IMG/VR virus record: IMGVR_UViG_3300023202_000137
Location: 26,758-90,757 of that record
Source: a virus
Direction: 5' to 3' (one strand)
DNA: 64,000 bases
The translations under genes and the position numbers were made by a program. Below the pieces are notes generated by a model that searched no databases, was not told the DNA's origin, and saw only the letters and a program-made list of their open reading frames with translations. This document shows, in pieces, positions 3,189 through 44,488 of the stretch (position 1 is the stretch's first letter; each line of letters opens with the position of its first letter).

Positions 3189-5702
3189 TTACTTCTTCTT
3201 TTTGGCGGGCTTCGTTGTCGCGTCCTTCTCTACCTCTAGCGTCTCCTCTTCGATGAAAGTTTTGCCGGTCAGTTCTTCGAGTGCCCTGATAGCTCGCTCC
3301 ATCCTGAACACCTTACGAAATCCTCGCACCTTGTTCTCGGTGTGGAGATAGTATTCGCCGGTCTTGGGATCGTGTGGAGAGATTTGGGTGACGGTACCAC
3401 CCTGGTCTCGAACGAAGACTTCTGCGAGCCCGCCAACATCTTTGGCATAGACTTGGGCTTTGTTGACTAGGCCGGTTGGATCTCCAACTCGCTCCCCCAA
3501 GTAGATTGCGTGGTTGTCGCCGCCGATGTTTCCGACGTAAAACCCATCGGTGTTGCTCCCTCCACCGTGCACCATCCTGAACCGTGTGTTGGAATCGAAA
3601 CGAAATGTTAGCTCATCACCACTGGTTATCGATCCAATCGCCACCTGGAGGGATGCTGCGAGGTCGGAGTTAAAGCGCAGAGCCCCTGTTCCCCCAAAAG
3701 ACCCATCGAGTTGTAGTCTATTTGCAACACCACCCGCACGAACGGCGAGTATGCCTTGGCTGGATCCAACATCAAGGCTCATGTACTCCGTGTTGCCGAT
3801 CAACCAGTCCCAACTGTCTGCGCTTCGGTCGTACCGGATAAAGTCTCCAGAGTCGCCACGAAACTCTCCGTCAACTCCGTTCCAAAACAGACCAAAGTTC
3901 TGGATACCAACCTCTAGGCCATCTACGCTCGTAGGCCCAAACCCCACTGCGCCAACGACGAGACCCTCTCGAATATTCACGCCGCCATTCTGCAGAACGA
4001 AGTCGTTGGTGCTACCGCGCTCGAATCGAAACGAGTCGAAGGTTCGACTGTAGATAAGCGCGTCACCACTATCGAAGCGCAAAATCCGGTCGTCACCGCT
4101 AAGACTCAAGTTGAAGTTGGCGTCATCTACAACGAACGAGGTATCGACAAAAACTGACTGGTACGGGTTGGCAAGGCTACCGATGTTCGAGTTGGATTGC
4201 AGAGGAATGATAGAGCCACGTTGACGGAACTCACTGACGAGTGGCTCGATTTCCAGAACTCGAATCGGAACCCCGCCTGAATACACATCGGCCTGCAGCT
4301 CACCTGTGTCATCTGCGCCAGCCCGAACCGCCGCAAGGGAGGCAATGACGTTGGTGACCACAGCGTCGTCTTCGATTGCGAAAGCAACCAAGGGGCCAAA
4401 CCCGTCTGCCATGTTTCCACTGGAGAGGGCGCGGAAGTCCAGAGCTTGCTGTGTGCCCGTGGTGGAGGCAGTGTCGATCCGTATCGCGTCCGGGCTAGTG
4501 CTTCCCCTTCGTATCCGTTTGCTCATCTCGGTTACGAGAAAATCGAGAGTGTTGGCCACGGTATCTGCAGGTGCCGTGAACACTGGCGGTACGAATGAGG
4601 GCGCCCCAGCTTGGCCGTCGTATCCGACTTGCGCAGACCCCAGGCCACCCGTTGTGGACTGCAGATCGTCGATCAATTCCTCGATAGCTGCTTGGACATT
4701 TCCCGAGCTAACGTAGTCGTGTGGGGTGAACGAAACACTCGCTGCTGTGAAGGGAGTCGTGCGAATGGTTTCTAGGTAGTCGAGCAGGGTTTCGATCTGT
4801 GCGTTGACAGTACCCTCGGCCAGGGTCAGTGGTGACCCAAGGGCAACGCCGCTACCACTCTTTGCGTTCGCCCCTACTTTCGTCGCGCCGTTGCTTGCAC
4901 CGCCCGCAGTGGCTAGGTCTGTGATCACATCGTTGATGGCTGCACGAAGGGTTGCGCTTGCATACCCAAGGGCAGTACCCCCGGTTGGGGTAAGCGTAAA
5001 TCCTTCGATCCCGATGAGGGTGGCACCCTCACCAGCCGCCTGACTTGCTAGCTCCCCTACGTAGGCGTTGTAGTCGGACAAGATGTCGTCGAGAACTTCC
5101 TTGGTCCTACCACGCACAACGTCGAGCCTCGTGTTACCCGTACTGCGAAAGAAATCCTGACGGCGAGAAACATCCAGGTTGCCGTTCGTAATGGTGGATT
5201 GCCCAAATGCGCGAGTGATGTCTACGAGCAAGATCGCATCTGGTCGAAGTGGTGGCGCTGTGGGGGCAACGTCTTCTGCGCTTTGAACCACGAAGAGACT
5301 GAACGATGCATTGCGACGAAAGAAAACCGTCACGCTGTTACCGTCCGTCTCAGGCTGCTGCAGATCTTCTGCGAACTCTGCAAAAACCGAGATTATTCGG
5401 CTGTTTCCGGGCGTGAGGACTTCGGTAGATGCCCCGAGGTTGTCTTGGCTAACGTCAACGATCTGCGGGTCTGGCCAGGAAACCTGCTTGCCTTCGGGGG
5501 TAAATAGAAGCGCATCGCCACTCACGTCAACAGTGAGAGCTGGTGGCCCCGACTCTGTAACCTCGCCATTTTTGACGATTCCGCTGAAACCTTTCTGCTC
5601 GTCACCAATTGCAGACTCGATACGATCCTGCACCTGGTCGAACGCCAGATCCATATCGCCTTCGGTCACTAGCTGGCGGAAGAAAAAGTCCAGTCTATCC
5701 AT
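3189..5702 (-). CDS. Tail fibre / receptor-binding protein
   Basis: 837 aa directly after the baseplate wedge gene. N-terminal baseplate-anchor-like region (MDRLDFFFRQLVTE), GA..IG and NVQAAIEEL fibre repeats, beta-rich C-terminal part. Confidence 0.8.
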   Translation of the reverse strand: MDRLDFFFRQLVTEGDMDLAFDQVQDRIESAIGDEQKGFSGIVKNGEVTESGPPALTVDVSGDALLFTPEGKQVSWPDPQIVDVSQDNLGASTEVLTPGNSRIISVFAEFAEDLQQPETDGNSVTVFFRRNASFSLFVVQSAEDVAPTAPPLRPDAILLVDITRAFGQSTITNGNLDVSRRQDFFRSTGNTRLDVVRGRTKEVLDDILSDYNAYVGELASQAAGEGATLIGIEGFTLTPTGGTALGYASATLRAAINDVITDLATAGGASNGATKVGANAKSGSGVALGSPLTLAEGTVNAQIETLLDYLETIRTTPFTAASVSFTPHDYVSSGNVQAAIEELIDDLQSTTGGLGSAQVGYDGQAGAPSFVPPVFTAPADTVANTLDFLVTEMSKRIRRGSTSPDAIRIDTASTTGTQQALDFRALSSGNMADGFGPLVAFAIEDDAVVTNVIASLAAVRAGADDTGELQADVYSGGVPIRVLEIEPLVSEFRQRGSIIPLQSNSNIGSLANPYQSVFVDTSFVVDDANFNLSLSGDDRILRFDSGDALIYSRTFDSFRFERGSTNDFVLQNGGVNIREGLVVGAVGFGPTSVDGLEVGIQNFGLFWNGVDGEFRGDSGDFIRYDRSADSWDWLIGNTEYMSLDVGSSQGILAVRAGGVANRLQLDGSFGGTGALRFNSDLAASLQVAIGSITSGDELTFRFDSNTRFRMVHGGGSNTDGFYVGNIGGDNHAIYLGERVGDPTGLVNKAQVYAKDVGGLAEVFVRDQGGTVTQISPHDPKTGEYYLHTENKVRGFRKVFRMERAIRALEELTGKTFIEEETLEVEKDATTKPAKKKK

Positions 5703-28047: not shown

Positions 28048-28755
28048 TTATCCCTTGGCCAGTTTCTTGGCGTGCTTCTGGATGTCTTTCACCTTGGAGC
28101 CGACCAGCTCTTGCAGGGCCGCGCTGTCTGCCTCGGCAACAGCTTGGTAGCTGGTGAACCCTGCCTCGTAGAGCTTCTGCTCGGTAGCCTGGCCAACGCC
28201 GTCGATCTTTTGCAGGTCTTCGGGCGTCGGGGAGTCTCCCGGAGGGGGGGGGAGATCATCCGTGGGGGCCCCTGGAGGGGCTGGGGGGAGGTCGTCGCTA
28301 GCTCCGGGGTCTTCTGGGGGAGGGGGATCCCCTTGGCCGCCCTGGGGCAGCTCGTTGGTGGTGAGGGCTCCTGGGTCGCTCGGATCGAGTACCCCCACCT
28401 GCTCTGCAGGGCTGCGCATGCTGGCTGCCTCTGCAGCTCGGGCACGAGCATCCTCAGTCATGTCCGCAGCGGCATCGAGGGGGTCAGCAGGGATCCCGCG
28501 CTTGAGCTTCGCTCGCTTCTCTGCCTCCACGACGCGTCGAGCCTCTGCCTCGCTGCAAACGTCGAAGACCATCGGAGAATCCGGGTCGTTGTTGTTCTGG
28601 TGAACGGTCTTGAGGTAGGCGGCTGCTGCTGCGTCTACCCGATACCAGCCGTTCTGGACCTGGAACTTGATTCCAAACACCGTGTAGCGTTTGACCTTGT
28701 AGCCGCGCTTTGGATTGAAAGGCTTGATTCGAGCCAAGTAAGTTTGCTGCGCCAT
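28048..28755 (-). CDS. Protein with Pro-rich linker and C-terminal helix-hairpin-helix domain
   Basis: DLQKIDGVGQATEQKLYEAGFTSYQAVAEAD; DDLPPxPPG repeats. Confidence 0.75.
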   Translation of the reverse strand: MAQQTYLARIKPFNPKRGYKVKRYTVFGIKFQVQNGWYRVDAAAAAYLKTVHQNNNDPDSPMVFDVCSEAEARRVVEAEKRAKLKRGIPADPLDAAADMTEDARARAAEAASMRSPAEQVGVLDPSDPGALTTNELPQGGQGDPPPPEDPGASDDLPPAPPGAPTDDLPPPPGDSPTPEDLQKIDGVGQATEQKLYEAGFTSYQAVAEADSAALQELVGSKVKDIQKHAKKLAKG

Positions 28756-29833: not shown

Positions 29834-30775
29834 CTACGCAACCAGTACGTTCTGAACCTTCACCGCAGCGGTTTCCTCTGCGAGCTTCGTATCGAAGCGT
29901 AGAGTTGCCACGATGATCACAACGCCAGCCGACACGTCCTTGTCGGTCTCCACGCGGATGTTCCGCCAGATACCAACGTTGACGTTCTTCGGATCTGTCA
30001 AGATCATCTCGGTGCTGTCGTTGCCGCCGCCCAAGTCTTCCGGTGCCACGGGCACTGGGACGATTGGAACACCGGAATACATCACCGGGGCATCTTGCTC
30101 CAGGAACCGATCGCCAACCACCGTCGCACGCTCAGCGAGCGCGTCACGGTAATCGATCTCGGAGTCGATGCTGGTCATGAACCGCATCTGACGCTTGTTG
30201 CGTAAGAACTCCGAGGGCATGGTCTTCAGCGAGTCACGGAACAACGTCTTGTTGGTCCGTGCGCCCGCTGCATCCACCAGGTTACTGGTGGTCAGCGCAC
30301 GCACGCCGTCGAACTTGGCAAAGAAGGGGTCGGCAGAGCCGGTGTCCCCGTTCCAGATCATATCGTCCATGTCGAGCGCGACGCGCTCGGCCATCAACTC
30401 CATGACCGTTTGGCGGAAGTTGCCCCGCTCGATGCTGTCTTCCAGCACCTCGTTGGACAACCGTACCTCTGCCTTGAAGAGTTGGGCATCCAACTCAACC
30501 AGAGAGAGGTCCGGCTTACTCCGCTCTGCCTGGGTCAGAGCTACGGCCTCGTTTCCAGCTCGGAGAATTCGTCCGGCGAACCGGATCTTCTCGATGAGCT
30601 GCTTGGGCGACCGCATCGGAACCACGGTGGCCATCTTCATGAGCACCGCTTCGTCGATGAGAATGCGCATGAAGCGCTGGGCTTGCGCTGGCTGCAGAAG
30701 CCCACCGTCGTTGGTGAGATCCGCCAAGGCCATATCGGCCTTTTCCAGCAGGGTTCGGTTTGCAGTAACAGTCAT
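29834..30775 (-). CDS. Major capsid protein (HK97 fold)
   Basis: [26 protein letters not shown]...DG, LTDPKN; 313 aa, follows the scaffold gene. Confidence 0.93.
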
Positions 30776-30821: not shown

Positions 30822-32021
30822 TCAGTAGTCCCGCTGCTTGGCGTTCATGTCGTGGGGCCAAACTACATCCCCAGTGTCTTTCTTCGTCACGCTCTCCCCG
30901 GTGGGGGTTTGCGACGATGGAAGACCAACGCCATTCTTCAAGGACTCGATCTCCTCGCGTTGCTTCTCAATGGTTTTGTTCTGCTTGGAGACCTTCTTCT
31001 TGAGGTCGCGCATCTCATCCAGACTTTCCTGGAGTTGGTCCGCAACCTTGGTGAGATCGGCCAACCCCGGAATGTCCCGCATGATACGAGCTGCATCCGA
31101 AACCGCGCTGTCATCAGGCTGCTCACCTGACCCAACGTTCGGGCCCTTGGTATTCGGAGCATCTTGGGGGGCTTTCTTTGCTTCGGATACGACTTCTTTC
31201 ATCGTACCGAAAAGCTCCTTTAGCTCCTGCATCCACTGACCTCTGGCCTTGCTTGTGCCTTCCCGATTGTCGCTGTTGCCGTCATCGCTTCGCCCTTCAA
31301 CGAGCGAAGGATCACCGCCACGACTTTCGAGTACGGCGTCGGCATGTCGCTCCAGGTGCCGACGCGCTGCAGCCAACTCATCCTCGGGCAAGTCGGATTT
31401 CTCCAACGCCTTGAGAGATCGCTTCAACGCCTCAACGTCCAGAGTTTCATGCTCGTTCGGGTCACCCACATCGGAACTGTGGTGACGGAAGAAACGCGTG
31501 GCTGCATCCTCACCCTTCGCAGTCTTCACAACTGCAAAGGCAGAGTCGGGAAACTTCTTCTGCGCCTTCGCCTTCTTCTTCTTCTTATTCTTCTTGCCTT
31601 TGTCTTTGCTGTAGGTGGTGTCATCGTCGTCGTCATCGTCGTCGTCCTGTTTGACGATGCCTGACTTGGACACCACACGGATGGCATCCCCTATATCCTT
31701 GGCTAGTTCCTCGGGAATTGAAGCACTCGTGTCGTCAATCTGTGCAGACTTCACAATTTCTTGGATGCCCTGCAGGCGACTCAGGGTTTTGCCGACGGCT
31801 TCGAGGATGGACTCGCGTGACTCAGTGCTGAGTGCGAGCGCGCTCTGGGCACTGAAGCTGCCGTCATCGTTCTCAACGATCTCGGGAGCAACGTTGCCGC
31901 GCTTTGTGAGAATGAACTTGCGCTTGTTTGCGGCGCGATCTACGAGGCTCACCTCTTCGGTTTCGATGTCTTCGAGTCGATGTAGCCCGTCGCCATCGGA
32001 CCGTGCTTTTCGAATTGTCAC
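30822..32021 (-). CDS. Capsid scaffolding protein
   Basis: N-terminal EVSLVDRAAN protease-like strand, D/K low-complexity tract, internal FPDSAFA...RHLERH domain, C-terminal coiled coil and WPHDMN. Confidence 0.75.
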   Translation of the reverse strand: MTIRKARSDGDGLHRLEDIETEEVSLVDRAANKRKFILTKRGNVAPEIVENDDGSFSAQSALALSTESRESILEAVGKTLSRLQGIQEIVKSAQIDDTSASIPEELAKDIGDAIRVVSKSGIVKQDDDDDDDDDTTYSKDKGKKNKKKKKAKAQKKFPDSAFAVVKTAKGEDAATRFFRHHSSDVGDPNEHETLDVEALKRSLKALEKSDLPEDELAAARRHLERHADAVLESRGGDPSLVEGRSDDGNSDNREGTSKARGQWMQELKELFGTMKEVVSEAKKAPQDAPNTKGPNVGSGEQPDDSAVSDAARIMRDIPGLADLTKVADQLQESLDEMRDLKKKVSKQNKTIEKQREEIESLKNGVGLPSSQTPTGESVTKKDTGDVVWPHDMNAKQRDY

Positions 32022-35000
32022 GCAGCCTCCTTAACAGGTTTTCGAAGTGCGGACCCTCCGATAGAAAACCCTGTGAGATCACCTCGTTTTATCGCTCGCC
32101 AGAGTGCGTCGTCAAGAACGCGAACAGCGAGCAGCCACGTGCCCTTGCGGACCTTCGTTCCGTTCACGTTCATCTCCACTGGGGCAACGTAGCTTTCCAA
32201 GATCTTGACCTTGCTGTTGATCACCCCCTTGTGCATCAGTCCGATATTACGGAACTTCTCCATGAATTTGTGGGCGCTCTCTCGAATATCCTCTGCGCTG
32301 TAGATGTCCTTCTGGGTGTCGGGATCGAGCGGCGCGCCTTCCGTACCATCGTTTGGCTCCAGCACCACGCCAAGCACGAAGCGTTCGTCGTCGGTAGACT
32401 TCTCGGTCTTCAGCAATGGCAGCTTTTTCTGCAGGACCTCGTCAAACGCCTTCTGATCCTCTGTCTGTGCATTACCCTTGAACACTGCGCAAAGCTCATT
32501 TCCACCGAACGTGTAGCTCGCATCGGCTGCTTTGATGATAGCACCGTTCGACTCGGGAGACTCATTTGCCCAGACCAGCGCCTCCTGCAGCTCGATATCC
32601 GTACGGACCAATTGCGAGGGGGTCAGGTACACCTGCTCTGACTTCTGCAACAAATGCTCGACCTTGCGGCGTCGCTCGATATATCGCTTCGCCGTCACAT
32701 TGCCTGCACTGGGGAGGAACAGTGCGTCATGAATACCTAGGTAAGTGGTCGCGCGATCACCAGAGGTAATAAATCCGTCGAGCACAAAGTCCCCGCCCAG
32801 CTTTCGTACCTCGTTCTCGATGTCGCATCGAAGCTCCTCGCGCTTCTCGGTCTGTCGCTTCAGGATTCCAATCACACCCTTAACCCCAGCGGTCAGGGTG
32901 ATGGTTCGGAACGATCCCTCTTTGAACTCTCCGGGCTCTCGCTGACGGAACCGATAGGAATCCTCGGTTTCATCAACCTTGCCCGAAGTGAACTCATGCT
33001 CTTTCAACCAGCGTCGAGCATCGGCTTCGCTCTTGAAACGCTTTTTGTCCAAGATCAGTGTTTGCAGCGTCGTGCTTTGCTTCATGAAGATGCGCACGCG
33101 CTCGGCTCGCTTTTGCACGGAGACTTCCAGCCCATCGAGGCGTGGTTCCACGAGCATCCCACCTTGCAACGTGGTCGATGTCGCAACCTTCTGCAGAAGC
33201 TCCTCGCCGCTTGCGTACTCTGAACCCATCATGGGTTCGTAGAGTGCGAACGGTCGTAGCTGACGACGGTCCAGAGAGGGATCTGTCGAATTCGCCCAGA
33301 CCTGGAGCCCCTGACGTACCGGGACTTGCTTGATCACGGAGTAAGATTCGACGGGCTCCAACTCGGCTTTCGCCAATTCGTACTCTGCGAAGCGTTTGGA
33401 CAACTCCCCTCTGTTCTGGACTTCGTTGATGTGGCCGGGGGCAAAGCTCGCAGCACAGTCGTTGCACTCGACAACAGACAAAGAGCGACCGCCGTCCATG
33501 TGGCTTTTGCCGGTCTTGCGAACATTGAGGCTACCGCAAGGCGGGCATTCTACATGGCTGAGGTCTTCCCCGCGACGCAAGAAAACCTGCGCCGACGCTC
33601 CGCGACTCGACTTGCTAATCTCCTGGGACTCCTCTGCGACGAGAACCCAATGCCTTGATCCCGGCTCCTCTGCCTTGAGCGTGTAGATGCCTCGCATCTT
33701 TCCACGGAACCGCAGTCGGATCTCATCCTCACTTTTGCTCAAGAACTCCACAAACCCAGAGTCCACGTTTCGTACCCAGCTCTCCATGCTCTTGGTAGCA
33801 TTGAGAATCTCGCCACCGATTTGCTCGGCAGGCTTTGCCTGACCCTCGAACTTCATGAGCTTTGTGCTCTTGAGCGTGCGGCAATCCCCTGCGATGCGCT
33901 CGTGCCCCTGCAAGGGGTCGCGGTCTAGCGCCCAGGCTTGCTTTCCAATCACAAGATGCCACCGCTCTCGCGTGGGGCTGTCACCCTCTGCCGATTTCCA
34001 TTGCTGCCAAGCAATTCCGTAGGGCTTCGATGTCTCTTTGTCCTTCTGTGTTCCTGTGTCGAGGTATATTTTATGTAGGACCCGCTGGAAGTCCCCGTTA
34101 ACGACTTTCACGTTCGAGTCAGTGAAATGTCCACGCTTCACCAACTCGTCGCGCATTGCGCGAGCTTCCTCCCCACGAGCCTCCCAGTATCGCAAGGAAC
34201 TTGGCACGAGTCGTTCGAGCGAAACAGGAATTCCAGAGTACCCGTCAGGCGGCATGACTCTGGCCTTTGCTGCACGCTCGGTGAGCACGAGTGGGCGAAG
34301 GTCCGTCTGCCATTGGGACCACCACCGGGGTTTCTCGGTTTTTTGCAGCGAGAACAGCAACCGCCCCTGGAACTCTGGGTCGCCCGTAAAAAAATACTCG
34401 TGAGCCGATGGTGTCTGCAGGCCGTACTCGACCTTTAGGTCTGGATCGGTCACCCGAGATAGTACTGCGGGCTCCTCTGCAGTTGCCCCAACCTCACCTG
34501 GCTGGACCTTCTCGTGATCGAGATTTAGCCAGGCCATGGGGCTCTGCCCCTTCGGGGTAGCAGCAACCCCCTCATTCCAATCACGCTCAAAGTAAGAGCC
34601 GCTCTTTTGAAATCGTCGAGCAAATCGCCTGGCCTCCCTTACGTCTTTGACTGTCGGAACCCGACCGGGCTGGTGGTTGTCAATGGTCCACCCCACCGTC
34701 ACGTCGTCGAGCTGCAACCGGAGGTCGCCGTGCATCCCCTTGCCTATAAAATGGTACTGATAGACGGCCTGGCGCTTCCCCCTAGACTTCGGAACCAAGC
34801 ACAGCGCCTCGGCCTTAGTCACAGTGTCGATGCACTGCTGACCGTGAACCTCAGCGTCACTGGCCTGGAGGATTCGAAACTCTCCATCCCCGGGCCGTAC
34901 CTCGTGAGACTTGGGCACCAGCCATAGGTCGTACAGGCCCACCCTATTTTCAGGACCCCCGATGTCTCCACCCTCCGCTGCGGCGGTTCGACCAAACATT

Positions 35001-37294
35001 CCCTCGGGAACAAGGGATTCTATGTGAGGGGAAAGACTGGGCCCGCTCAATAGAAGGTCGATGTCACCTTTGGTGACTCCCCAGTTCGCGAGACCGCCGA
35101 CAACTGACACCGCATCACGCTCCAGAAGCACGGGTCGTAGCTGGGTCGTCACTTGATCTAGCTGAATTTCTCCGCTGTGCTCTCGGGAATTCTTTGAGTG
35201 ATGCGAGCGGCCAAACTCATCCGACGCCAGTCGCATCACTTCAGACAATGCACCCAGACCGTTGGTAACTCCCTTGCCAAGCGACTTGATAGCGTCCTGT
35301 GGAAGTTTCGACAGATGTCCGTGGAGATCTTTGACCACCTGCAGAAGATTGTGTTCCCCACACTTCGTCAGCTTTCCGGTGTTAACCGCCGAGAGATCTT
35401 TCTTCAAAGCCTCCGCGCGTCTGGGGAACGAATCAAGAAACGACACGATTGGTTGCTTGCCCTGCATGCCCGACAGCAAAGAGACGCTGCGCTTGCAGAA
35501 GCTCGGCGCGAGTACAGCGAGCTGATGTGCTAGCGACTGTGCAGACTTCAGCGATTCAACTTCATCGTCGTTCAGCTCTATGGCTTCGGGCTCTGGGTCT
35601 TTGAACTTCTCTACTTTTGAAACGCGGTACCCCCAAAGAACTTTGGATTTCGGCCACCGCTTCTCGCGCTCCTCATCAGTCAACCCATGCTCGGTCACCG
35701 TCTCGGCAAACTTCCATGTCGAGATCTTCTCTGCGGCCTCAACTTCGATGATTCCGTAGTCGGTGCTTCCGTCGGTAACCAGCACCGGGCCTTCGATGCT
35801 GTGCTTCTTTGCTTCGAGAAACATCGACACATCACCGTCGATGATCTTACGAGCGTGGTCCGGTGTCGTCTCGAATTCCAGAGCTGCTCGTCGTCGCCTT
35901 TCATCGCTTTCACGCAACGAGTGTCTTGCCTCTGCACCAGCGTCGATGAACAAATCGCTGGTGCCGAACCAATTGATCGGACCGTCCACCACCTGGCACT
36001 CGCCAACCGACCCGGTCTCCGCTCGAAGATAGAACCGGCAATTGCCGCACACCCGCTCCCGGTCGGCAGACTGCCCTAGCTCTGGGACATAATCGGCCTC
36101 GTCTTGATTGAATTTCCTACCGTTTTCCTCCACCCGCCTGATCGTCTCGTCGGCCTCCCAGCCACGGCTATTTTGGGGGGCTTGCTTGGTCGCGCGATCT
36201 CGATCTTCCTCGATGGCCTTTCGGATGTGCTCGGTTTCGGGCCCGACGTACACAAGCAACGGACTCGTGTAGCTCTTGGCTAGCTCAACGACCTCGCGAT
36301 CCATGGTATCGAACATCTCGTCGTAGCCAAGCATCGCCTTTTGCATGGGGAGTATCTCCCCCTTCTCTAGCGACTTATTTATATGGCTGTTGAGTTTCTG
36401 GAAAAACCGTTTGTAGGTTCGGATCGAAAAACGCAGTCGGTCTTCCCGCTTCAGGAAGTCAAATCCCTTGGCTTGCGCAGAGTCTCGAATTTCCTTTGGA
36501 ACTTTGTCTTTCGCGAAACCTGATACACCTGGCCAACCGTTCTTTCGAGTCGTGAGCACTTCGACGCGACCGTAGGCAGGGCCAAAGGCCCACGAGGTAA
36601 AATCAAACGAGTCAACGTGCTTCCAGAACTCTGCGTACCGCCAACTTCGGCGACCAACACCCAATAGATGCAAGTAGGTGTGGTTGTGTGTCTTGCAGAG
36701 ATCTGTACGCTTTCGACATACCTCGATAAGCTGGGTGTTCGTTGCGCTCCGATAGCTTCCCTTGCCTTTTCCCCCTTCAGAGCTTCCCCCTTTGCCGTCC
36801 TTCTTTTCTTCTTTGTCTTTGCGCGACAGCCAAAACGAATTGACCATGCCACCCCAGGCAACTTTCTTCCCGGTGCGGTAGTATTGCTTCGCGCGGTCCG
36901 TGATCTTTGTTGGGATGTGGTCAACATATATGGGGGCAACACCCAACTTCACTAGGGCTTCAAAGTTTTCGTCGGTCTTCTTTGGGCTCGACGGAACGTC
37001 GATGGGCATGAACTCTTCAACAAGTGACTTGTGAGACTTCACAAAGTCGGCGTACTCTTCGATTGATACCTTTCCCCCATGCACTGCTGCAGAAAACGCA
37101 CCCGAGTCCAGCAACACACGCACGCCGTTTAGCTCCTTGGGTAACCCTTTCTTGAAGTAGTGGTAGGAAACGAGCATCTCTCGGATGCCCTCTTCCTTGA
37201 GTATCTGGATCTGATCTTTGGCTACGGCGACGAAATACGAGTGCGGTCGCGTGCTAGGGCTTCCCGGAAGTTTGCTTACTCGTTGTCGTGGCAT
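32018..37294 (-). CDS. Multidomain (polyvalent) head protein: TGT/DpdA-like, HiPIP-like, ASCH-like, nucleotidyltransferase, LigD phosphoesterase-like x2, Zn ribbon, degenerate ATP-dependent ligase, XkdF-type prohead protease
   Basis: LLDSGAFSA/HLLG/DSFDFTSW; CGNCRFY..C.VV.G.I...G; VGGL.....GDIDLL; QYH....HGDLRL; CPPC..CNDC; EPRLDG/FVLDG/NGAIIK; VLGVVLEP...D.Q.D...AH.FM...H...GTW...TGFSIGG. Confidence 0.85.
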   Translation of the reverse strand: MPRQRVSKLPGSPSTRPHSYFVAVAKDQIQILKEEGIREMLVSYHYFKKGLPKELNGVRVLLDSGAFSAAVHGGKVSIEEYADFVKSHKSLVEEFMPIDVPSSPKKTDENFEALVKLGVAPIYVDHIPTKITDRAKQYYRTGKKVAWGGMVNSFWLSRKDKEEKKDGKGGSSEGGKGKGSYRSATNTQLIEVCRKRTDLCKTHNHTYLHLLGVGRRSWRYAEFWKHVDSFDFTSWAFGPAYGRVEVLTTRKNGWPGVSGFAKDKVPKEIRDSAQAKGFDFLKREDRLRFSIRTYKRFFQKLNSHINKSLEKGEILPMQKAMLGYDEMFDTMDREVVELAKSYTSPLLVYVGPETEHIRKAIEEDRDRATKQAPQNSRGWEADETIRRVEENGRKFNQDEADYVPELGQSADRERVCGNCRFYLRAETGSVGECQVVDGPINWFGTSDLFIDAGAEARHSLRESDERRRRAALEFETTPDHARKIIDGDVSMFLEAKKHSIEGPVLVTDGSTDYGIIEVEAAEKISTWKFAETVTEHGLTDEEREKRWPKSKVLWGYRVSKVEKFKDPEPEAIELNDDEVESLKSAQSLAHQLAVLAPSFCKRSVSLLSGMQGKQPIVSFLDSFPRRAEALKKDLSAVNTGKLTKCGEHNLLQVVKDLHGHLSKLPQDAIKSLGKGVTNGLGALSEVMRLASDEFGRSHHSKNSREHSGEIQLDQVTTQLRPVLLERDAVSVVGGLANWGVTKGDIDLLLSGPSLSPHIESLVPEGMFGRTAAAEGGDIGGPENRVGLYDLWLVPKSHEVRPGDGEFRILQASDAEVHGQQCIDTVTKAEALCLVPKSRGKRQAVYQYHFIGKGMHGDLRLQLDDVTVGWTIDNHQPGRVPTVKDVREARRFARRFQKSGSYFERDWNEGVAATPKGQSPMAWLNLDHEKVQPGEVGATAEEPAVLSRVTDPDLKVEYGLQTPSAHEYFFTGDPEFQGRLLFSLQKTEKPRWWSQWQTDLRPLVLTERAAKARVMPPDGYSGIPVSLERLVPSSLRYWEARGEEARAMRDELVKRGHFTDSNVKVVNGDFQRVLHKIYLDTGTQKDKETSKPYGIAWQQWKSAEGDSPTRERWHLVIGKQAWALDRDPLQGHERIAGDCRTLKSTKLMKFEGQAKPAEQIGGEILNATKSMESWVRNVDSGFVEFLSKSEDEIRLRFRGKMRGIYTLKAEEPGSRHWVLVAEESQEISKSSRGASAQVFLRRGEDLSHVECPPCGSLNVRKTGKSHMDGGRSLSVVECNDCAASFAPGHINEVQNRGELSKRFAEYELAKAELEPVESYSVIKQVPVRQGLQVWANSTDPSLDRRQLRPFALYEPMMGSEYASGEELLQKVATSTTLQGGMLVEPRLDGLEVSVQKRAERVRIFMKQSTTLQTLILDKKRFKSEADARRWLKEHEFTSGKVDETEDSYRFRQREPGEFKEGSFRTITLTAGVKGVIGILKRQTEKREELRCDIENEVRKLGGDFVLDGFITSGDRATTYLGIHDALFLPSAGNVTAKRYIERRRKVEHLLQKSEQVYLTPSQLVRTDIELQEALVWANESPESNGAIIKAADASYTFGGNELCAVFKGNAQTEDQKAFDEVLQKKLPLLKTEKSTDDERFVLGVVLEPNDGTEGAPLDPDTQKDIYSAEDIRESAHKFMEKFRNIGLMHKGVINSKVKILESYVAPVEMNVNGTKVRKGTWLLAVRVLDDALWRAIKRGDLTGFSIGGSALRKPVKEAA

Positions 37295-38006
37295 CGTCTA
37301 CACCATACTCCATGGAGCCCTGTTTCAGAACCGCCTTTCGGATGGCTCCAATAGACTTCCCTTTGGCGGCGGTGGGGTTGGCGTACCTATCATTCTCCCA
37401 GACCTGTGCCGAGTCAGAGTACGCTCGTATCTCCCAAAAACCCAGCTTGTGTTTGGTCAGAAACTCTAGGCCGGTGACCCACTTGCAGCTCTTATACTGC
37501 CACAAATGGGGCGGTGCGATGTAGCGCAGAGGAAACCCGTGGGCCGGGGATAGCGGCTTGCCCTTGTACCCATAGGCCAGGATTCCCTGCAGGAAATCCT
37601 CGACCCATAGGCAGGTGCTGAACTCGTCGAGACCGTGGACAAGAACCGTCGTCACGCTGTCATGAGGATTCACCAGGTCAACAATGTGGGCTGCTGGAAC
37701 CCCCTGCCATTCTGTGTCGAACAGGGACCACCCAGTGATGCAATGGAAGTCCTGCTGAATCTTTGTTTCGGGCCATAGATCCATCATCTCCCGGAGTGAC
37801 ACTTCGAACGGGTTTTCGATCTCTCCCCACCCCTGGAGCTTCCATTTCTCGGGCTCGTTTATCTTTGGGATCGAAGCGTACTCAAGATGCGGGAACTTTT
37901 TTGCGAGCGTCTGCCCTGACGGGGTTCGCTTTCGCCGCGTATCTAGGTCGTAATCCTTCGGATCAAACTCATCCCCCGCAGGGTCAGCGCCTAAGTCGAT
38001 CTTCAT
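37254..38006 (-). CDS. Molybdopterin-dependent oxidoreductase, sulfite oxidase family (cytoplasmic YuiH-like)
   Basis: DFHCITGWS with the Mo-ligating Cys, W.GV, HGFPLR...P.L..YKS.KWV..LEF, GFWE..AY; no Tat signal. Confidence 0.92.
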   Translation of the reverse strand: MKIDLGADPAGDEFDPKDYDLDTRRKRTPSGQTLAKKFPHLEYASIPKINEPEKWKLQGWGEIENPFEVSLREMMDLWPETKIQQDFHCITGWSLFDTEWQGVPAAHIVDLVNPHDSVTTVLVHGLDEFSTCLWVEDFLQGILAYGYKGKPLSPAHGFPLRYIAPPHLWQYKSCKWVTGLEFLTKHKLGFWEIRAYSDSAQVWENDRYANPTAAKGKSIGAIRKAVLKQGSMEYGVDDATTTSKQTSGKP

Positions 38007-38294
38007 TTACTTCACTCGGTGGGCTATTTCGCGAGCTGTCAGAAAAAACAAAGGCCGCTCAACGATGAATTCCAAAACAATTGCCACCCACAAGTCCACC
38101 CCTAGGTACTCAACGAGCAGGTAAAGAATAGGCGCACGCACCAGCAGCCACGGGGATGAGAGTGGATACCACACCAAAAGCTGCTTCATGGTCGAGCTTC
38201 CACTCCAGGTTCCGCCACGAACAAATAGATAGGCAACCAGCATTGCAACAAACAAGGCAGCAGTAATGCCCTGGATAATCACTGCGGCGCTCAT
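38007..38294 (-). CDS. Small membrane protein, GtrA-like
   Basis: 95 aa with about three hydrophobic helices; ILYLLVEYLGVDLWVA resembles GtrA C-terminal helices. Confidence 0.5.
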   Translation of the reverse strand: MSAAVIIQGITAALFVAMLVAYLFVRGGTWSGSSTMKQLLVWYPLSSPWLLVRAPILYLLVEYLGVDLWVAIVLEFIVERPLFFLTAREIAHRVK

Positions 38295-39205
38295 GCCAAA
38301 TCGTTTTCTAGCGTAGTCACGATGTCGTGTGCCAGGTGGCTGTCTTCCGATACCGCCTTGACCTTGCAGTTGATGACTTTGCCGTCGGGGACAAACTCTG
38401 CAGTGATGCCTCGCAGAATCTTCTGTACCCGGACAGCACCGTCCTCGGTAAAGGTAGGGCCAGCGTAGGACTTCAGCACCTGCACGACTTCATCTGGGAT
38501 CTTCATGTTCGACATAACCGGCACGAGTCGGCCAGTCACCTCACGCATGATGGGGGCGAACACCACGGGTGCGTCAGTGATCAACTCAATGTCGATGTGC
38601 GTACGCTGCGTGTGGGACTGCTTGCCGTCTGTTTCAAAAAGAACGAATGGGCAAACCGTGAACACTGTCGTTCGAAGGTGGAAAAGGTAGTGGCCCTGTT
38701 TTAGATCTGGATCAATCCTGTCGCTCAGCTCGTAACCAATGCCGATGCTCCAAGGCAGTGTTGAGGGGATGCCAGTGCAATGGGCTTTGAGCTTCGAAGA
38801 AATCTTTGAGCGCGCCATGACACGGAACTTGGAGCCATGGTGCGCGTCACGCAGATTCTCTGCGGCGAGCTTTGCCCACTCCCATGCCGGTACCGCTTCG
38901 TCGGCTTTCTCTGTCTTGAGAGTATCCCGTGCAAACTCCATCGAGGATATCATTCGATTCATGTGCGCTTTGACTCTGGTTACCCGCGCCAGGATATCGC
39001 ACTTTGGCATAGTGAACAGGTGGGCCTCTTTGCCGTCGTACACCTTGAACAGACCTGACAGGTAGTAGTTCACCATGTCTACGTCGAGCGGGTAATCGAC
39101 TGGGATCTCCGGTCCGTCCTCATCCCAACCCGTGCCGTATGACTCTACGGCTTCTTTCCATTGGGCAACGAGCTTGCCGTACTTCTCTTCCTGCTCCTTA
39201 TCCAT
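38291..39205 (-). CDS. folE2: Divergent GTP cyclohydrolase, FolE2/MptA family
   Basis: HMNR (HMSR), TVCP (TxCP), SHTQR (AHxQR), KIPDE (KRxDE), PTFTED (PxFVED), EDSHLAHD (ESIHxH), in the canonical order. Confidence 0.8.
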   Translation of the reverse strand: MDKEQEEKYGKLVAQWKEAVESYGTGWDEDGPEIPVDYPLDVDMVNYYLSGLFKVYDGKEAHLFTMPKCDILARVTRVKAHMNRMISSMEFARDTLKTEKADEAVPAWEWAKLAAENLRDAHHGSKFRVMARSKISSKLKAHCTGIPSTLPWSIGIGYELSDRIDPDLKQGHYLFHLRTTVFTVCPFVLFETDGKQSHTQRTHIDIELITDAPVVFAPIMREVTGRLVPVMSNMKIPDEVVQVLKSYAGPTFTEDGAVRVQKILRGITAEFVPDGKVINCKVKAVSEDSHLAHDIVTTLENDLA

Positions 39206-39698
39206 TCTGATCCTCTGTCTCTGGCCTGCTACGAAGCCATGCCTCCACAGCGTCTCGGTCCTCGCGGGCAGCGACGCTCACGCCATCCAACGTCCAGCTA
39301 TCCCAAGACAGCACGGGTTTCTTGTTGTCGAGGGCATAGGCCATCTCCTGCAGAGTCCCGAGTCGACCCGGCAAGGCTAGAACAATGTCAGCCGACAGTG
39401 GTGTGATCATGTTGCGAGCAAAGCCAATGCCCGTCGCGATCACGATGTCGATATGGTCGTTTGCGTCTTTGATACAGGAGCCCGGAAGAACTCCAATAGA
39501 AACGCCGCCCGCAGCTTTTGCACCACGGGCGGCGTGGCTCATTACACCTGATAGTCCACCGGTCAGAACATGGTAGCCCGCTTCAACAGCCGCCGCCCCA
39601 GCGTAAAACGCCATGTCGGCAACCTCATCAGACCACTTTGGGCCCCAACCTTTGGTGCCGATGATTGCACACACCGGCACTCGTTCCTTTGAGGGCAT
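39198..39698 (-). CDS. LOG/SLOG family protein (TIGR00725-like)
   Basis: TGGLSGVM..AARGA..AGG..IGVLPG, TGIGFARN, PGRLGTLQE (PGxxGTxxE). Start taken at the ATG after GGAGGGG; the track's TTG start is 39716. Confidence 0.9.
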   Translation of the reverse strand: MPSKERVPVCAIIGTKGWGPKWSDEVADMAFYAGAAAVEAGYHVLTGGLSGVMSHAARGAKAAGGVSIGVLPGSCIKDANDHIDIVIATGIGFARNMITPLSADIVLALPGRLGTLQEMAYALDNKKPVLSWDSWTLDGVSVAAREDRDAVEAWLRSRPETEDQNG

Positions 39699-39711
39699 CT
39701 GCCCCTCCATC

Positions 39712-39740
39712 GCCAACTCTAGTGTTGGCCTGTACCTGTT
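39712..39740 (-). promoter_or_regulatory. Intergenic motif AACAGGTACAG, copy 4, plus 6-bp hairpin
   Basis: Motif at 39730-39740 followed on the minus strand by GCCAAC-ACTAGA-GTTGGC; heads the SLOG-FolE2 cassette. Confidence 0.55.
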
Positions 39741-40952: not shown

Positions 40953-42326
40953 CTACGTTTCCGCAACCGTAGTCGTGCGGCAAAGGCCGTGGTACGGGGG
41001 GGCACCTATGCGATTTCCCTCCAGGTTGCGTCCAGCGCTCGTGGTGGAGTAGTTGCCAGCGCTCTGAGTCCCCAATCCGGTCTTGTTTACCTCAAACAGC
41101 CTGGTTCCGTTGGCCTGCCAAAAGGTGCGCCCATCGCTGGTAGTCTCGGTCGTTGCCCATGGGTTGGCAGCCTTCATGGTGTCCACGCTCCCGGCTTTCT
41201 CGGCGTCCTCCATGATGCTGATAGATCGCTCCACGTCGATGACTCGACCATCCACCCACCTGCAGAAATCGGTGGTCGCCTCATCTTGGACCGCTACGGC
41301 TACGAACTTTGTGATCCCTGCATCCACGTAGGAACTCAGCTCTGCCCGGGACCTAGAGCGATCAACCAAAGCAGCAGCGTACACACGGAAGTAGGATTCG
41401 GTCCGGCCTGAGACCCTGTTTCGGAACTCCCCTAAAAGGTCTTCCGATATTTGCCCACGCCCCAGTCCTTCTTCCAGGCCACGCTCTACAATTTCACGAG
41501 CACGACCCTCGAACTGGGACGCCCGTACACCGTACTCGTTGGTCAACCAGGTTACAGAGGTCTGCTGCGCTGCACGCAAAGACTCTCGGTCTGCAGATGT
41601 CAGGCTCACGTTGATGTCGAAACGATGTCGCTCGATGGCAGCACGTCGCGCACCCTTCATGGTTCGCTCGCCTTCACGTTCAATGACGCCTCGAATCCCA
41701 CGCACCGCGCGTACCGGTACCTCTTCGATCCGTGCCGATGCTTGCCGTATGAGATTGTTCCGTCGCCTGGCGTTCATCCCTGGCCAGTCGGAATCAATAA
41801 ACCGTCGAGCTGCTCGTATCTGCGCCCTCTCGTTCTTGCCAGCGACTCCCACCATGGCGTCAGCGGCCTGGCGTACAATCAAGGCTCTGTTGCGAGATTT
41901 GCTAGGATCGAGAATTCGCTTGGCCTTTTCAACAGGAAACAGAATTTCCTCGGCTGCCTCGATGGCCTTGGTCAGCATTTTCTCGGTGGAGGCTCGTCGT
42001 AGTTTCTCGATCCCTTGGTAGAGTATCTGCTCGCCAACCATACAGACTGCTTTGCCGACGATGATTTCCTCACCAGTCTCCGCAACTATCATTGACGCAA
42101 CTCTCTGCAGATTATCCAGACTCTCCCCCGGGGCGCCCCGGGTAAACTTCTCACCGCATACGAGCACGTACCCTTTGGCTACTCCTGGGTTTTCAGGCGG
42201 ACGCCACCCCATTGCACGCATAGCGATGTCGCATCGGTCGCCAAGGTCGAGGTTTGGGCCAACGTTGAAAAAGCCCGTGAAGGGTACGGGTTCAACCGAA
42301 AATACTGTTTCAGGAACTTCGCACAT
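40953..42326 (-). CDS. MuF-like minor head protein (SPP1 gp7 family)
   Basis: AV.DE.TT.FCR.VDGR and PPYHGLCRTT; follows the portal. Confidence 0.88.
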   Translation of the reverse strand: MCEVPETVFSVEPVPFTGFFNVGPNLDLGDRCDIAMRAMGWRPPENPGVAKGYVLVCGEKFTRGAPGESLDNLQRVASMIVAETGEEIIVGKAVCMVGEQILYQGIEKLRRASTEKMLTKAIEAAEEILFPVEKAKRILDPSKSRNRALIVRQAADAMVGVAGKNERAQIRAARRFIDSDWPGMNARRRNNLIRQASARIEEVPVRAVRGIRGVIEREGERTMKGARRAAIERHRFDINVSLTSADRESLRAAQQTSVTWLTNEYGVRASQFEGRAREIVERGLEEGLGRGQISEDLLGEFRNRVSGRTESYFRVYAAALVDRSRSRAELSSYVDAGITKFVAVAVQDEATTDFCRWVDGRVIDVERSISIMEDAEKAGSVDTMKAANPWATTETTSDGRTFWQANGTRLFEVNKTGLGTQSAGNYSTTSAGRNLEGNRIGAPPYHGLCRTTTVAET

Positions 42327-42579
42327 TGGACAGGACTATAGGGGACCGCTCTCGACCTTGCACTTCGATTCCACGCTCGGTGGCTCGGATGACAATCTCA
42401 TTTCTAGCCGTGCAGTCGTCGCAGATCCCATAGAGAAGGTACCCGTTGCGCCATACCGTCATTGCCCGGTCTATCGGCCCCAATACCTTGCATTTTCTGC
42501 AGCAAAGCACCTCTTGGGCGGCTTCCTGCTGGGCTTCCTCTGCCCAAGCCTTTCCATCACTCTCGGTCAATGAACTCAT
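42310..42579 (-). CDS. Small Zn-finger protein
   Basis: CRKC...CDDC; overlaps both neighbours. Confidence 0.5.
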   Translation of the reverse strand: MSSLTESDGKAWAEEAQQEAAQEVLCCRKCKVLGPIDRAMTVWRNGYLLYGICDDCTARNEIVIRATERGIEVQGRERSPIVLSNVRSS

Positions 42580-44488
42580 CCATCTGGTCGGGGGTTACCT
42601 CGATCACTATGGTTTCCCCCCCGTTCTCTTCCCGGTCACGTCGCAACTGTTCGATCTCTTCCTTCTGCAGCGACGAGGTAAGGCTGGAGCGGATACGAAG
42701 CAGCATTTGAGCGACCTCGCTCATTCCATCGCTCGTGATTGATGGGATCTTGGGCTGCTTACCTTGGGCGGGCTTCAATCGTCCACCGCTGTCCAGGTCC
42801 CCGCTCGTCGTGTCGCCCTTTTCTTCGTCGATGCGGCGTGCGCTCGGAGAAGACTCTTGCCCGGTCTGAATTCCAGCGAGAGTGAAGCTCAACGGCTGCT
42901 TGGTCCAGTCGTCTTTGATGATCTCAAACTCGCGGTTGAATATATCCCCCGCGAGCATTCGAGATTCTGCTGGTACGAGCACCCCTTGTTTGGTCAGCTC
43001 TGCAACGAGCTTGCCCATTGTCTCGGGGTCCCGACTGACGGGGCTGTTCGATTGGTAGCGCCAAAACTTTGCGTTCAGCTCTGGCATGATTCGATTGTTT
43101 ACAAAGAAATCGAAGTCGTCACGCTCTGGCTGAAAGACTTGCTCCTCTGCCATACGCAGTGCGGCCAGCGCAGTTGCCCGGTTGAAGTCTCGCGACTCCC
43201 CCCGAAGCAAACGAGGTACTCGAAACGACGACCCAACCTTGTCAATGTTGTTCTGATCGTACTCCTGGAAGAGCCCATCCTTGTGTTGAGCATCGAGCAA
43301 GGGCTTGATCTCGATCATCGGGCGCTGTGGGCTCGGCCCTTCGGTCCGGTTGTTGGGGGCAACCGCTTCGAGCACCATGATCTTGTGAAAATTTCGCTTT
43401 CCTTTGATCTGGTTCTCAATGAAGTTCTCAATGCGAGGCACTGAGCTTTTGCTGAGACGGCCACCGGACACAAGTACCGCCATCGGGGGTACGGTCTTGT
43501 TCTCGAAGTAGAAAAAGTTCACCTCTTCAGCAGATCGAGACCCCAGAACCGAGATCAATACACCGATCCAGCGCGGCACCCCATAAGGAGAACGCGAGCT
43601 TTCGATTTTGAAATGGATCATCTCGTTGGCTGGCTGCGCGGTCTCGCCCTCTTTCTTTCGCAGCTCCTCCATGTTGCTGAAGAAGTGCCCGGTGGTGCGT
43701 GATACGATTCGTGGGTCGCCAAACTCTTTGAAGAAAACGGGCGTACCTGTTTCTGCTAATTGAACGTAGGTGCGGAACTGCTTGGTGATGTTGACGGTGC
43801 CAAACGTTATTGGAGAAATCTGCACCCGCTCTTTCACGGTCATCGGCTGCGGGTTTATCCCGCGCAGACGTACCGTCCAAGAGGGCACGTAGACAAAGCG
43901 AGCAATCGACCCAGCATTGTTGCGGAGGATTTCCCAATAGGCGTTTCCTGTGACCTCAAGATCTTGTCTCGTGATCTTGCGCAGCTTTGGAAAGCTCATG
44001 TCCTGGGCGACGAACCTGAAAAATGCTTGGACTTTGGATTTCTCTATGCGCGACCCTAGCTTGAGTGCCTTGGCTCGGTTCTCGATTTCCTCATCGGTCG
44101 GCTTCAGGTCATCCAGCTCAGCCTCCGTGATGTCGAACCCCTCCTTTGCCAGTCGCTCCATAATAATGGAGTCAGCTATTTTTTCGTTGGCGTCTTCTGC
44201 ATCGAGATCAATTGCCGCTTCGAGCCGGTGACCGAAGGCATCTATGTTGACCGCGTAGGCATCGACGTTTGGTCGCAGGCTATTGCTGATCTCGAACAAC
44301 CCAGCCAGAGTTTCTGGGTCGTGCGGGGGCTCGATTGCTCCAGACTTGTTGAATACAGACTCGCGGTCCTCTGGCTGTTGCTGCGACGACTGCAAAGGAA
44401 TACCGCTGGGTTCTGATCCCACGGTGAACGCCTTGCTGAGTACCTCTCGGTTACGCTCAACGACTGACTGTTTGCTTTTGTTGCTCAC
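42557..44488 (-). CDS. Portal protein (PBSX-like)
   Basis: DLEVTGNAYWEILR, NEMIHFK, YGVPRWI, N..YFEN..VP, FRVP.LL.G..DFNRATA, VFQPE. Confidence 0.93.
   Translation of the reverse strand: MSNKSKQSVVERNREVLSKAFTVGSEPSGIPLQSSQQQPEDRESVFNKSGAIEPPHDPETLAGLFEISNSLRPNVDAYAVNIDAFGHRLEAAIDLDAEDANEKIADSIIMERLAKEGFDITEAELDDLKPTDEEIENRAKALKLGSRIEKSKVQAFFRFVAQDMSFPKLRKITRQDLEVTGNAYWEILRNNAGSIARFVYVPSWTVRLRGINPQPMTVKERVQISPITFGTVNITKQFRTYVQLAETGTPVFFKEFGDPRIVSRTTGHFFSNMEELRKKEGETAQPANEMIHFKIESSRSPYGVPRWIGVLISVLGSRSAEEVNFFYFENKTVPPMAVLVSGGRLSKSSVPRIENFIENQIKGKRNFHKIMVLEAVAPNNRTEGPSPQRPMIEIKPLLDAQHKDGLFQEYDQNNIDKVGSSFRVPRLLRGESRDFNRATALAALRMAEEQVFQPERDDFDFFVNNRIMPELNAKFWRYQSNSPVSRDPETMGKLVAELTKQGVLVPAESRMLAGDIFNREFEIIKDDWTKQPLSFTLAGIQTGQESSPSARRIDEEKGDTTSGDLDSGGRLKPAQGKQPKIPSITSDGMSEVAQMLLRIRSSLTSSLQKEEIEQLRRDREENGGETIVIEVTPDQMDEFIDRE

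Follow-up and report, generated by a model that had tools for sequence, protein, structure and literature searches.

A 1758-residue phage protein places DpdA-like and DNA end-processing domains ahead of an XkdF-type prohead protease and may carry enzymes into the capsid

We have analysed a 64,000-nucleotide stretch of DNA from an uncultured virus (the window), which corresponds to bases 26758-90757 of the 90,757-bp IMG/VR phage record IMGVR_UViG_3300023202_000137, a record estimated to be 87% complete. The minus strand of the window contains an open reading frame (ORF) at positions 32018..37294 that encodes a protein of 1758 amino acids (aa) and ~195 kDa (P0001), which we predict to be a polyvalent precursor having a prohead protease of the XkdF type as its C-terminal end. 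Many other phages have such a fusion, and its recurrence suggests that the enzymes preceding the protease are loaded into the capsid by means of this fusion; on balance, we favour the view that the precursor carries modification and end-repair enzymes into the capsid and that these are delivered together with the DNA. Comparative data lend weight to the idea that fusion to the protease serves to target proteins to the head: the position of the gene in the head module, the constant order of N-terminal cargo and C-terminal XkdF, the counter-defence nature of the cargo, and the grouping of the fused DpdA domains in one old clade. On this reading, the enzymes would enter the procapsid, remain in the virion and be injected. 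Neither polyvalent proteins nor DpdA are new as such; the DpdA-protease clade and the proposed cargo role of XkdF are what is new. In the literature that could be searched, we found no description of a clade of DpdA domains joined to a prohead protease, nor of XkdF as a general cargo carrier.

Results

The ORF occupies the position of the prohead protease in the head module

The ORF runs on the minus strand from an ATG at position 37294 to a stop at 32018-32020, and its 1758 codons contain zero internal stops, leaving 5.3 kb uninterrupted in the assembly. M1 is likelier than M40 to be the true start, since the next in-frame ATG, GTG or TTG codon after M1 is that of M40 and alignments of the first domain with its homologues begin at residue 19-20; therefore, the 1719-aa version of the same ORF proposed by the gene caller (P0002) looks truncated. 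Because the source is a single metagenomic contig, it may be argued that a chimeric assembly, or sequencing errors fusing several genes, has given rise to an artefactual long ORF. We consider this scarcely credible. At least 10 independent proteins of 1000-2014 aa share the same collinear architecture and are encoded on independent contigs, which makes a chimera unlikely, and conservation runs through the domain junctions of the 5.3 kb without stops. A scan of the 1758-aa protein against NCBIfam gave no matches, and the only match in a single-sequence phmmer search against the Protein Data Bank (PDB) was to a high-potential iron-sulphur protein (HiPIP; E 0.15).

The C-terminal domain (residues 1612-1758; 32021..32461, on the minus strand as are all domains of the ORF given below) is an XkdF-type (Peptidase_S78_2) prohead protease according to its matches to Pfam (E 2.2e-25; 89.5 bits versus a cut-off of 24) and to PHROG 3017, head maturation protease (E 1.9e-34). 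S1744 (in TGFSIGG), H1688, H1675 and D1659 are conserved in all 10 sequences compared, and the catalytic residues are probably among them. These matches, the invariant Ser and His residues and the position in the head module bear out the preliminary description of this DNA, which had read the ORF as a 1758-aa enzyme chain fused to a prohead protease of the XkdF type, and whose domain coordinates proved to be correct to within a few tens of nucleotides.

The genes of the head module, all on the minus strand, are arranged in the order portal (42557-44488), MuF-like minor head protein (40953-42326), SLOG, FolE2, GtrA-like, Mo-oxidoreductase, the ORF, scaffold-like (30822..32021) and major capsid protein (29834..30775). 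The portal and MuF-like genes were assigned by PHROG/Pfam context matches; the scaffold-like protein matches PHROG 13975 and the N-terminus of PHROG 3017, and the major capsid protein matches PHROG 1623 (E 9.9e-94) and Pfam Phage_capsid. The scaffold-like gene starts at a GTG that overlaps the stop codon of the 1758-codon ORF (GTGA). The 90.7-kb record contains one XkdF match, which lies within the big ORF, and a search across this record for S78 or ClpP proteases found none. Given that its XkdF domain is the sole one, that no S78 or ClpP protease was found, and that it is located between the portal and MuF-like genes on one side and the scaffold and capsid genes on the other, the ORF appears to fill the prohead-protease slot, and it is the only recognisable candidate for a head-maturation protease in the record. 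The same order around XkdF is present in the metagenomic loci L089 and L094 and in cultured phages.

XkdF proteases of other phages carry different N-terminal cargoes

When IMG/VR was scanned with the family alignment, 50 XkdF loci were found, in which the N-terminal extensions range from none to ~1400 residues. The cargoes sampled include the Dam (D12) methylase, tandem Dam, InPase, which is a polyvalent-protein domain, and ChaB combined with Acb1. The latter combination is found in a 395-aa protein (L046:4422-5609; IMG/VR UViG_3300018083_000211), in which ChaB is followed by the anti-CBASS protein Acb1 (Pfam E 2.3e-40) and then by XkdF. Long relatives of the 1758-aa protein swap DpdA for Dam, or carry Dam at other positions. 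In every fusion found, the cargo is N-terminal and XkdF is C-terminal. A repertoire comprising Dam, DpdA and Acb1 would fit the needs of a phage at entry or packaging. Such an entry or packaging role matches the prediction made for polyvalent proteins, including the observation of Iyer et al. 2017 that head peptidases are always C-terminal in these proteins (PMC5512222).

The stand-alone 154-aa XkdF protein of Pseudomonas phage vB_PpuM-Roomu-2 (L173:3162-3626) and similar proteins are annotated as 'DNA methyltransferase'. This naming of stand-alone XkdF proteases is an annotation error that the present analysis exposes; its likely source is PHROG 1530 and 13242, which contain methylase-XkdF fusions, and the error is being passed on.

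The N-terminal domain is a DpdA-like transglycosylase belonging to a clade of protease-fused domains

The first domain of the protein (residues ~15-335; 36290..37252) is predicted to form the TIM barrel of a DpdA-like DNA-guanine transglycosylase, with a K/G-rich loop insertion at residues ~157-185. It matches PHROG 887 (E 1.5e-21), and tblastn searches with the domain find DpdA of phage 9g and other Queuovirinae. When a 20-sequence profile of the domain was compared with the PDB, the sole significant match was Salmonella DpdA (7ui4; E 5.5e-4). The AF2 model of the N-terminal part has a predicted local distance difference test score (pLDDT) of 79.7, and of >90 over most of the barrel (residues 20-310). 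The VIA Z-scores of this model are 19.1 with archaeosine tRNA-guanine transglycosylase (TGT; 1iq8), 17.5 with bacterial TGT (3unt) and 17.4 with DpdA (7ui4; root mean square deviation (rmsd) 3.3 over 248 residues), versus at most 13.7 with unrelated TIM barrels, and the top 50 Foldseek matches are all TGT. Residues D63 (in LDSGAF), D99 and D231 (in DSxD) are invariant in 20 sequences. In 7ui4, the counterparts of LDSGAF and DSxD are the motifs GDCGAF and SIDST, and the three residues correspond to Asp95, Asp130 and Asp256 of Salmonella DpdA, which are essential and function as general acid/base, in base recognition and as nucleophile (PMC10164549). The PHROG and profile matches, the TGT fold and the conservation of all three catalytic Asp residues uphold the earlier TGT/DpdA-like call, and the active site of the domain is intact as judged from sequence and fold. 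The zinc site of bacterial DpdA (CXCX2CX22H) was sought in residues 1-340 and is absent.

An exhaustive search with residues 1-470 yielded 624 relatives. XkdF is present at the C-terminus in 24 of the 29 closest DpdA-type relatives, the shortest forms of which are 443 aa long. A FastTree phylogeny of 139 DpdA domains, for which the support values are only local Shimodaira-Hasegawa-like ones, placed all of the fused domains (41/41) within one set of 49 (support 99). This set contains eight unfused rows, at least four of which look like truncated ORFs; DpdA of phage 9g is located in a separate, all-unfused set (support 96). Within the clade, the DpdA-XkdF fusion is retained down to ~25-35% identity. 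Judging from this tree, the fused DpdA domains constitute one old clade.

The five IMG/VR records that have a DpdA-XkdF gene all encode QueC, and in three of them QueC is directly upstream of the fusion gene (by coordinate conversion); at L089 and L094, QueC is followed by DpdA-XkdF, the scaffold-like gene and the major capsid gene. These links between QueC and the fusion, seen in relatives, suggest that it is the DNA of the phage that is modified. The suggestion that the base-exchange enzyme might act on host nucleic acid found no support. In the record of L096 (G004), a 113-kb complete phage record that also encodes a 950-aa DpdA-XkdF protein, QueC (4333-4983) is part of a 552-aa frame, which is possibly a Gat-QueC-type fusion.

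The central part contains an end-processing core

Residues ~706-791 (34922..35179) correspond to a putative minimal nucleotidyltransferase (NTase) of the Pol-beta superfamily, with the motif GG..(x9)..DIDLL and a downstream YDL. In alignment A2, five of six sequences carry the signature hG[GS]x9-13Dh[DE], and a HMMER alignment of the motif region to AadA has an E of 0.55. In the model, this region has VIA Z-scores of 5.1-5.3 with four MNT/minimal NTases (HEPN-MNT type) and of ~4 with Pol mu and Pol beta. Z-scores of this size are modest; minimal NTases were consistently the best fold matches other than phosphoesterases. The assignment to the Pol-beta NTases, made previously from the motif, is therefore supported by the motif together with a modest fold match.

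The NTase is followed by two copies of a LigD-type 3'-phosphoesterase (PE). In copy 1 (residues 835-1000; 34295..34792), the H..H.D.R signature is intact, H848, H855, D857 and R859 being invariant in 29 sequences; the metal-ligating His, His and Asp residues and the Arg of the signature are H42, H48, D50 and R52 in the numbering of P. aeruginosa. The top PDB match of the copy 1 profile is 3p4h, over the motif. Copy 1 was not listed by VIA, and its link to the PE fold is by hhalign to copy 2 (probability 85%, E 5.9e-6). Copy 2 (residues 1089-1221; 33632..34030) has kept the fold, with VIA Z-scores of 14.5 to 3p4h (rmsd 2.1, 111/118 aa) and 13.2 to 3n9b, and with seven top Foldseek matches that are all LigD PE (probability 1.00), and it has lost the metal-ligand motif: H..H.D.R was sought in copy 2 in alignment A8 and is absent. 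The preliminary description had recognised a LigD-like phosphoesterase and a second, degenerate copy, which is what the structural matches and the fate of the motif in the two copies indicate.

The two PE copies flank a segment that we refer to as MPPDG (residues 1000-1075; 34070..34297), which is the most conserved cargo stretch of the family. It contains 10 invariant positions in 24 sequences (MPPDGxSxxP...RYWE...ARxxRDxLV), is modelled with a pLDDT of 94-98, and gave chance-level matches only when its profile was compared with the PDB. The segment is also present at L082:7998-8273, in a 356-aa protein that has XkdF without PE domains, and may serve for anchoring or regulation instead of belonging to the enzyme. 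PE1-MPPDG-PE2 forms the C-terminus of 726-aa proteins without XkdF on metagenome contigs (L063-L068), and is also found in the archaeal virus ANMV-1 (KP703175.1 4697-5779; tblastn E 2e-15), where it is annotated as ATP-dependent DNA ligase. By this distribution, the tandem phosphoesterases constitute an independent module. Downstream of it, residues ~1243-1301 (33392..33568) form a predicted four-Cys zinc ribbon (CPPC...CNDC) that is common to P0003-P0005; this call, too, stands, on the four Cys residues and weak Pfam matches below the cut-off (Zn_ribbon_PaaD, E 0.009; Lar, E 0.11).

The ligase-like module is a degenerate remnant

Residues ~1349-1605 (32480..33250) correspond to the remnant of an adenylation domain of an ATP-dependent DNA ligase. 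The family profile matches (archaeal) ligases in the PDB with an E of 3.8e-15, and the Pfam score of the 1758-aa protein itself is 16.8 bits. In this protein, ligase motif I reads EPRLDG, the Lys being replaced by Arg, versus VEPKxNG in the relatives P0004/6/7/8; the Glu of motif III is lost, and that of motif IV is replaced by Asn. P0001, P0003 and P0005 lack the OB domain, which P0004/6/7/8/10 have. Because the Lys of motif I, the Glu residues of motifs III and IV and the OB domain are gone and a foreign domain has been inserted, the ligase module of the 1758-aa protein is very probably inactive. Hence, what stands of the ATP-dependent ligase-like call made previously is homology at the family level; the module itself is degenerate and without the catalytic Lys and OB domain.

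The inserted domain is a mobile domain of ~85-95 aa (residues ~1395-1490; 32825..33112), as matches to other proteins cover only residues 1392-1491. It has the motif KRFxSxxxAxxWLxxHxF...VDETxDSYRFRQ...SFRTI, adjoins the three-Cys domain described below in many small proteins, and has neither an atlas match nor a family match.

Two small domains follow DpdA

A mobile domain of ~90 aa with three Cys residues is located at residues ~365-465 (35900..36202). C416, C419 and C433 are invariant (CGxCRFYLR...GxCQVV; spacing CX2CX13C), and a 74-sequence alignment has T/S at the position of the fourth HiPIP Cys. The Pfam HIPIP family matches the domain below threshold (E 0.0057; 17.4 bits versus a cut-off of 22), as it does in seven of ten other members. 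The domain is present in at least 73 other representative proteins, 26 of which have XkdF; a PHROG scan of those without XkdF gave nothing informative except for methyltransferase neighbours. Thus, the 'HiPIP-like' domain noted previously is a real, conserved and mobile domain, whereas HiPIP membership was rejected, with three of the four Cys ligands and a score under the gathering threshold, and the likeness is to be taken as a lead. The following domain (residues ~470-585; 35540..35887) is predicted to be ASCH/PUA-like. A five-sequence profile (A5) matches Thermus TTHA0113 in the PDB (2dp9, 1wk2) with an E of 9.6e-4 over 112/124 residues, and TTHA0113 (2dp9) is presumably ASCH/PUA-like; the atlas lead for these residues is ASCH as well (score 0.89). 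The ASCH-like call is therefore supported at an E of ~1e-3.

Taking the domains together, the DpdA, ASCH-like, Pol-beta NTase, two LigD-PE, zinc-ribbon and XkdF calls stood, and the ligase-like and HiPIP-like calls needed correction. Catalytic signatures are intact in DpdA, PE1, the NTase and XkdF, and degenerate in PE2 and the ligase. The predicted toolkit is therefore smaller than had been proposed, with a ligase that has neither the catalytic Lys nor the OB domain and a second PE copy without metal ligands.

Genes neighbouring the ORF

Four genes on the minus strand are packed between the MuF-like gene and the big ORF (37254-39716). Within 37254..39716 are genes for a SLOG protein (LDcluster4, E 6.4e-34), a FolE2-like GTP cyclohydrolase (Pfam GCHY-1, E 3.5e-8) and a small GtrA-like protein (GtrA, E 0.0015). 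The fourth, which encodes a protein with a molybdopterin-oxidoreductase domain (37254-38006; Oxidored_molyb, E 1.8e-29), overlaps the start of the ORF. On the other side of the capsid gene, positions 28048-28755, among the head-completion genes, encode a protein of 235 aa that has a helix-hairpin-helix domain (HHH_5, E 1.9e-8) at its C-terminus.

Discussion

How might a protein of this composition function? Prohead proteases are known to be built into the procapsid. In the mechanism that we favour, the C-terminal XkdF domain would co-assemble into the procapsid with the scaffold and the capsid protein, thereby bringing the N-terminal 1600 residues inside. XkdF would then cut the chain at long, poorly ordered linkers, and the folded enzyme domains, being too large for the capsid pores, would be retained alongside the DNA and accompany it into the next cell. 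Modification of DNA with 7-deazaguanine is a major anti-restriction strategy of phages, and DpdA would exchange guanines in the phage DNA for 7-deazaguanine to this end, the latter being made from host precursors, possibly aided by the FolE2 encoded nearby. Repair of damaged 3' ends would fall to the phosphoesterase/NTase core, and the ASCH-like, three-Cys and zinc-ribbon domains may act as reader or adaptor domains.

A variant of this scheme is that the cargo is encapsidated and not injected, acting only during DNA packaging, after which it would be degraded by XkdF and lost in the way of a scaffold. It is established that many phages digest and expel their scaffold and protease, and the linkers modelled with low confidence (pLDDT <50; model residues 90-127 and 377-386) would be open to the protease. 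However, folded domains of 15-40 kDa are unlikely to pass through capsid pores unless they are fully digested, and the Acb1 cargo of a relative would make sense only upon delivery to the next cell. We therefore regard loss of the cargo before injection as distinctly improbable.

It should be noted that several observations weigh against loading of the enzymes into the capsid and their delivery with the DNA. The role of XkdF as a prohead protease rests on annotation and synteny, and cargo-bearing XkdF proteins are known from sequence alone, the cultured phages found having short XkdF only. A cargo of 195 kDa would, at typical protease copy numbers, take up much of the capsid volume. The probable inactivity of the ligase is another such point, and so is the presence of the PE core in proteins with a C-terminus other than XkdF (L063-L068, L070, L079), which indicates that the core can do without the capsid anchor. 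Finally, QueC, QueD (PTPS) and the radical-SAM enzyme QueE were sought in the record, which is 87% complete, and none was found; only the FolE2-like gene is present. Given their absence from this record, the phage would use preQ0 or preQ1 of the host, or make another base with the neighbouring FolE2, SLOG and Mo-enzyme, and the neighbour cluster at 37254-39716 could be a candidate non-canonical base-synthesis cluster.

The main rival to capsid loading is that the polyprotein serves timing only: fusion to the protease would ensure late, stoichiometric co-expression, and the enzymes would be cut free in the cytoplasm by XkdF or by the assembling head and would modify and repair the replicated DNA before packaging, with little or no cargo in the virion. 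This possibility is favoured by the fact that insertion of 7-deazaguanine is regarded as post-replicative and requires the free base (PMC10516641). In addition, DpdA is a soluble enzyme encoded in the replication module of cultured Queuovirinae, and the PE core exists without XkdF in other proteins. However, covalent fusion is unnecessary for co-expression, and a role in timing leaves the constant C-terminal position of the protease, and the retention of the fusion at ~25-35% identity, unexplained. Moreover, prohead proteases such as those of HK97 and T4 are normally active only inside the assembled shell. In view of these points we consider it rather unlikely that the fusion serves timing alone, and prefer the view that the enzymes are taken into the capsid.

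If capsid loading applies, a further step can be envisaged, namely that the tethered DpdA works in the capsid or at the portal on DNA during packaging, and that the same enzymes are then injected, so that the earliest replication rounds of the following infection are protected. This extension is speculative and, on present knowledge, probably incorrect. If true, insertion of 7-deazaguanine, and Dam methylation in sister phages, would be physically coupled to encapsidation, so that only packaged DNA would be modified. The place and time of action of DpdA are known only as 'post-replicative', and a capsid-protease-fused clade encoded beside QueC gives a testable answer, i.e., at or in the capsid. 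More generally, the data suggest that XkdF is a general carrier of N-terminal cargo for counter-defence enzymes (Dam, DpdA, Acb1, InPase and end-repair modules). If this view is correct, XkdF would be a simple, natural capsid-loading system, useful for phage biology and for the engineering of protein-delivering phages.

Comparison with known systems

Several phages are known to package enzymes or anti-restriction factors in the head and to deliver them together with the DNA: IPI-III and Alt of T4, DarA and DarB of P1, the virion RNA polymerase of N4 and the ejection proteins of SPN3US, some of which are cut by the prohead protease. These internal proteins depend on short targeting peptides or on partners, whereas the protease domain itself is the proposed targeting device in the system described here, which is known from sequence alone.

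The end-processing core resembles bacterial LigD and the archaeal stand-alone PE (3p4h, 3p43, 5dmp) in the fold of copy 2 (Z 14.5) and in the His-His-Asp-Arg signature of copy 1. As in LigD, an NTase and an ATP-ligase module are present in one chain with PE, which reflects the same logic of end healing and sealing. In contrast to LigD, which has an AEP primase-polymerase, the protein described here has a minimal Pol-beta NTase; its PE is duplicated, with the conserved MPPDG insert, and its ligase is apparently dead, those of the relatives P0004/6/7/8 being apparently intact.

The DpdA domain shares with the bacterial and phage DpdA proteins the TGT-fold barrel, the three catalytic Asp residues, the Phe gate (in LDSGAF) and, in relatives, the association with QueC. 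It differs from bacterial DpdA (7ui4) in that it does not have the zinc site of the latter. DpdA1 of phage 9g and its Queuovirinae counterparts are unfused and encoded in the replication module between FolE and the sliding clamp, whereas the fused DpdA belongs to a separate clade, is encoded in the head module and is joined to the head protease. Unlike the phage DpdA systems (DpdA1 of 9g, DpdA2-4), the record analysed here is one in which QueC, QueD and QueE were not found.

A further parallel is with the polyvalent proteins (PMC5512222), in which many enzymatic and adaptor domains are likewise combined in one polypeptide that is encoded beside MuF and portal and may have a C-terminal head peptidase. 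Several effector domains and a head-gene context, by which such proteins are recognised, are both seen in the 1758-aa ORF, and packaging would follow by analogy. The counter-defence repertoires also overlap, as both include methyltransferases and Pol-beta NTases, and InPase is present in relatives (L015, P0011). They differ in that the C-terminal peptidases of the polyvalent proteins were called 'assemblin-like' and were of limited distribution, and in that the main text of that study has neither TGT nor LigD, the phosphoesterases there being only of the unrelated 2H type (PMC5512222). In the system described here, the anchor is XkdF, and this class of fusions is abundant in metagenomes.

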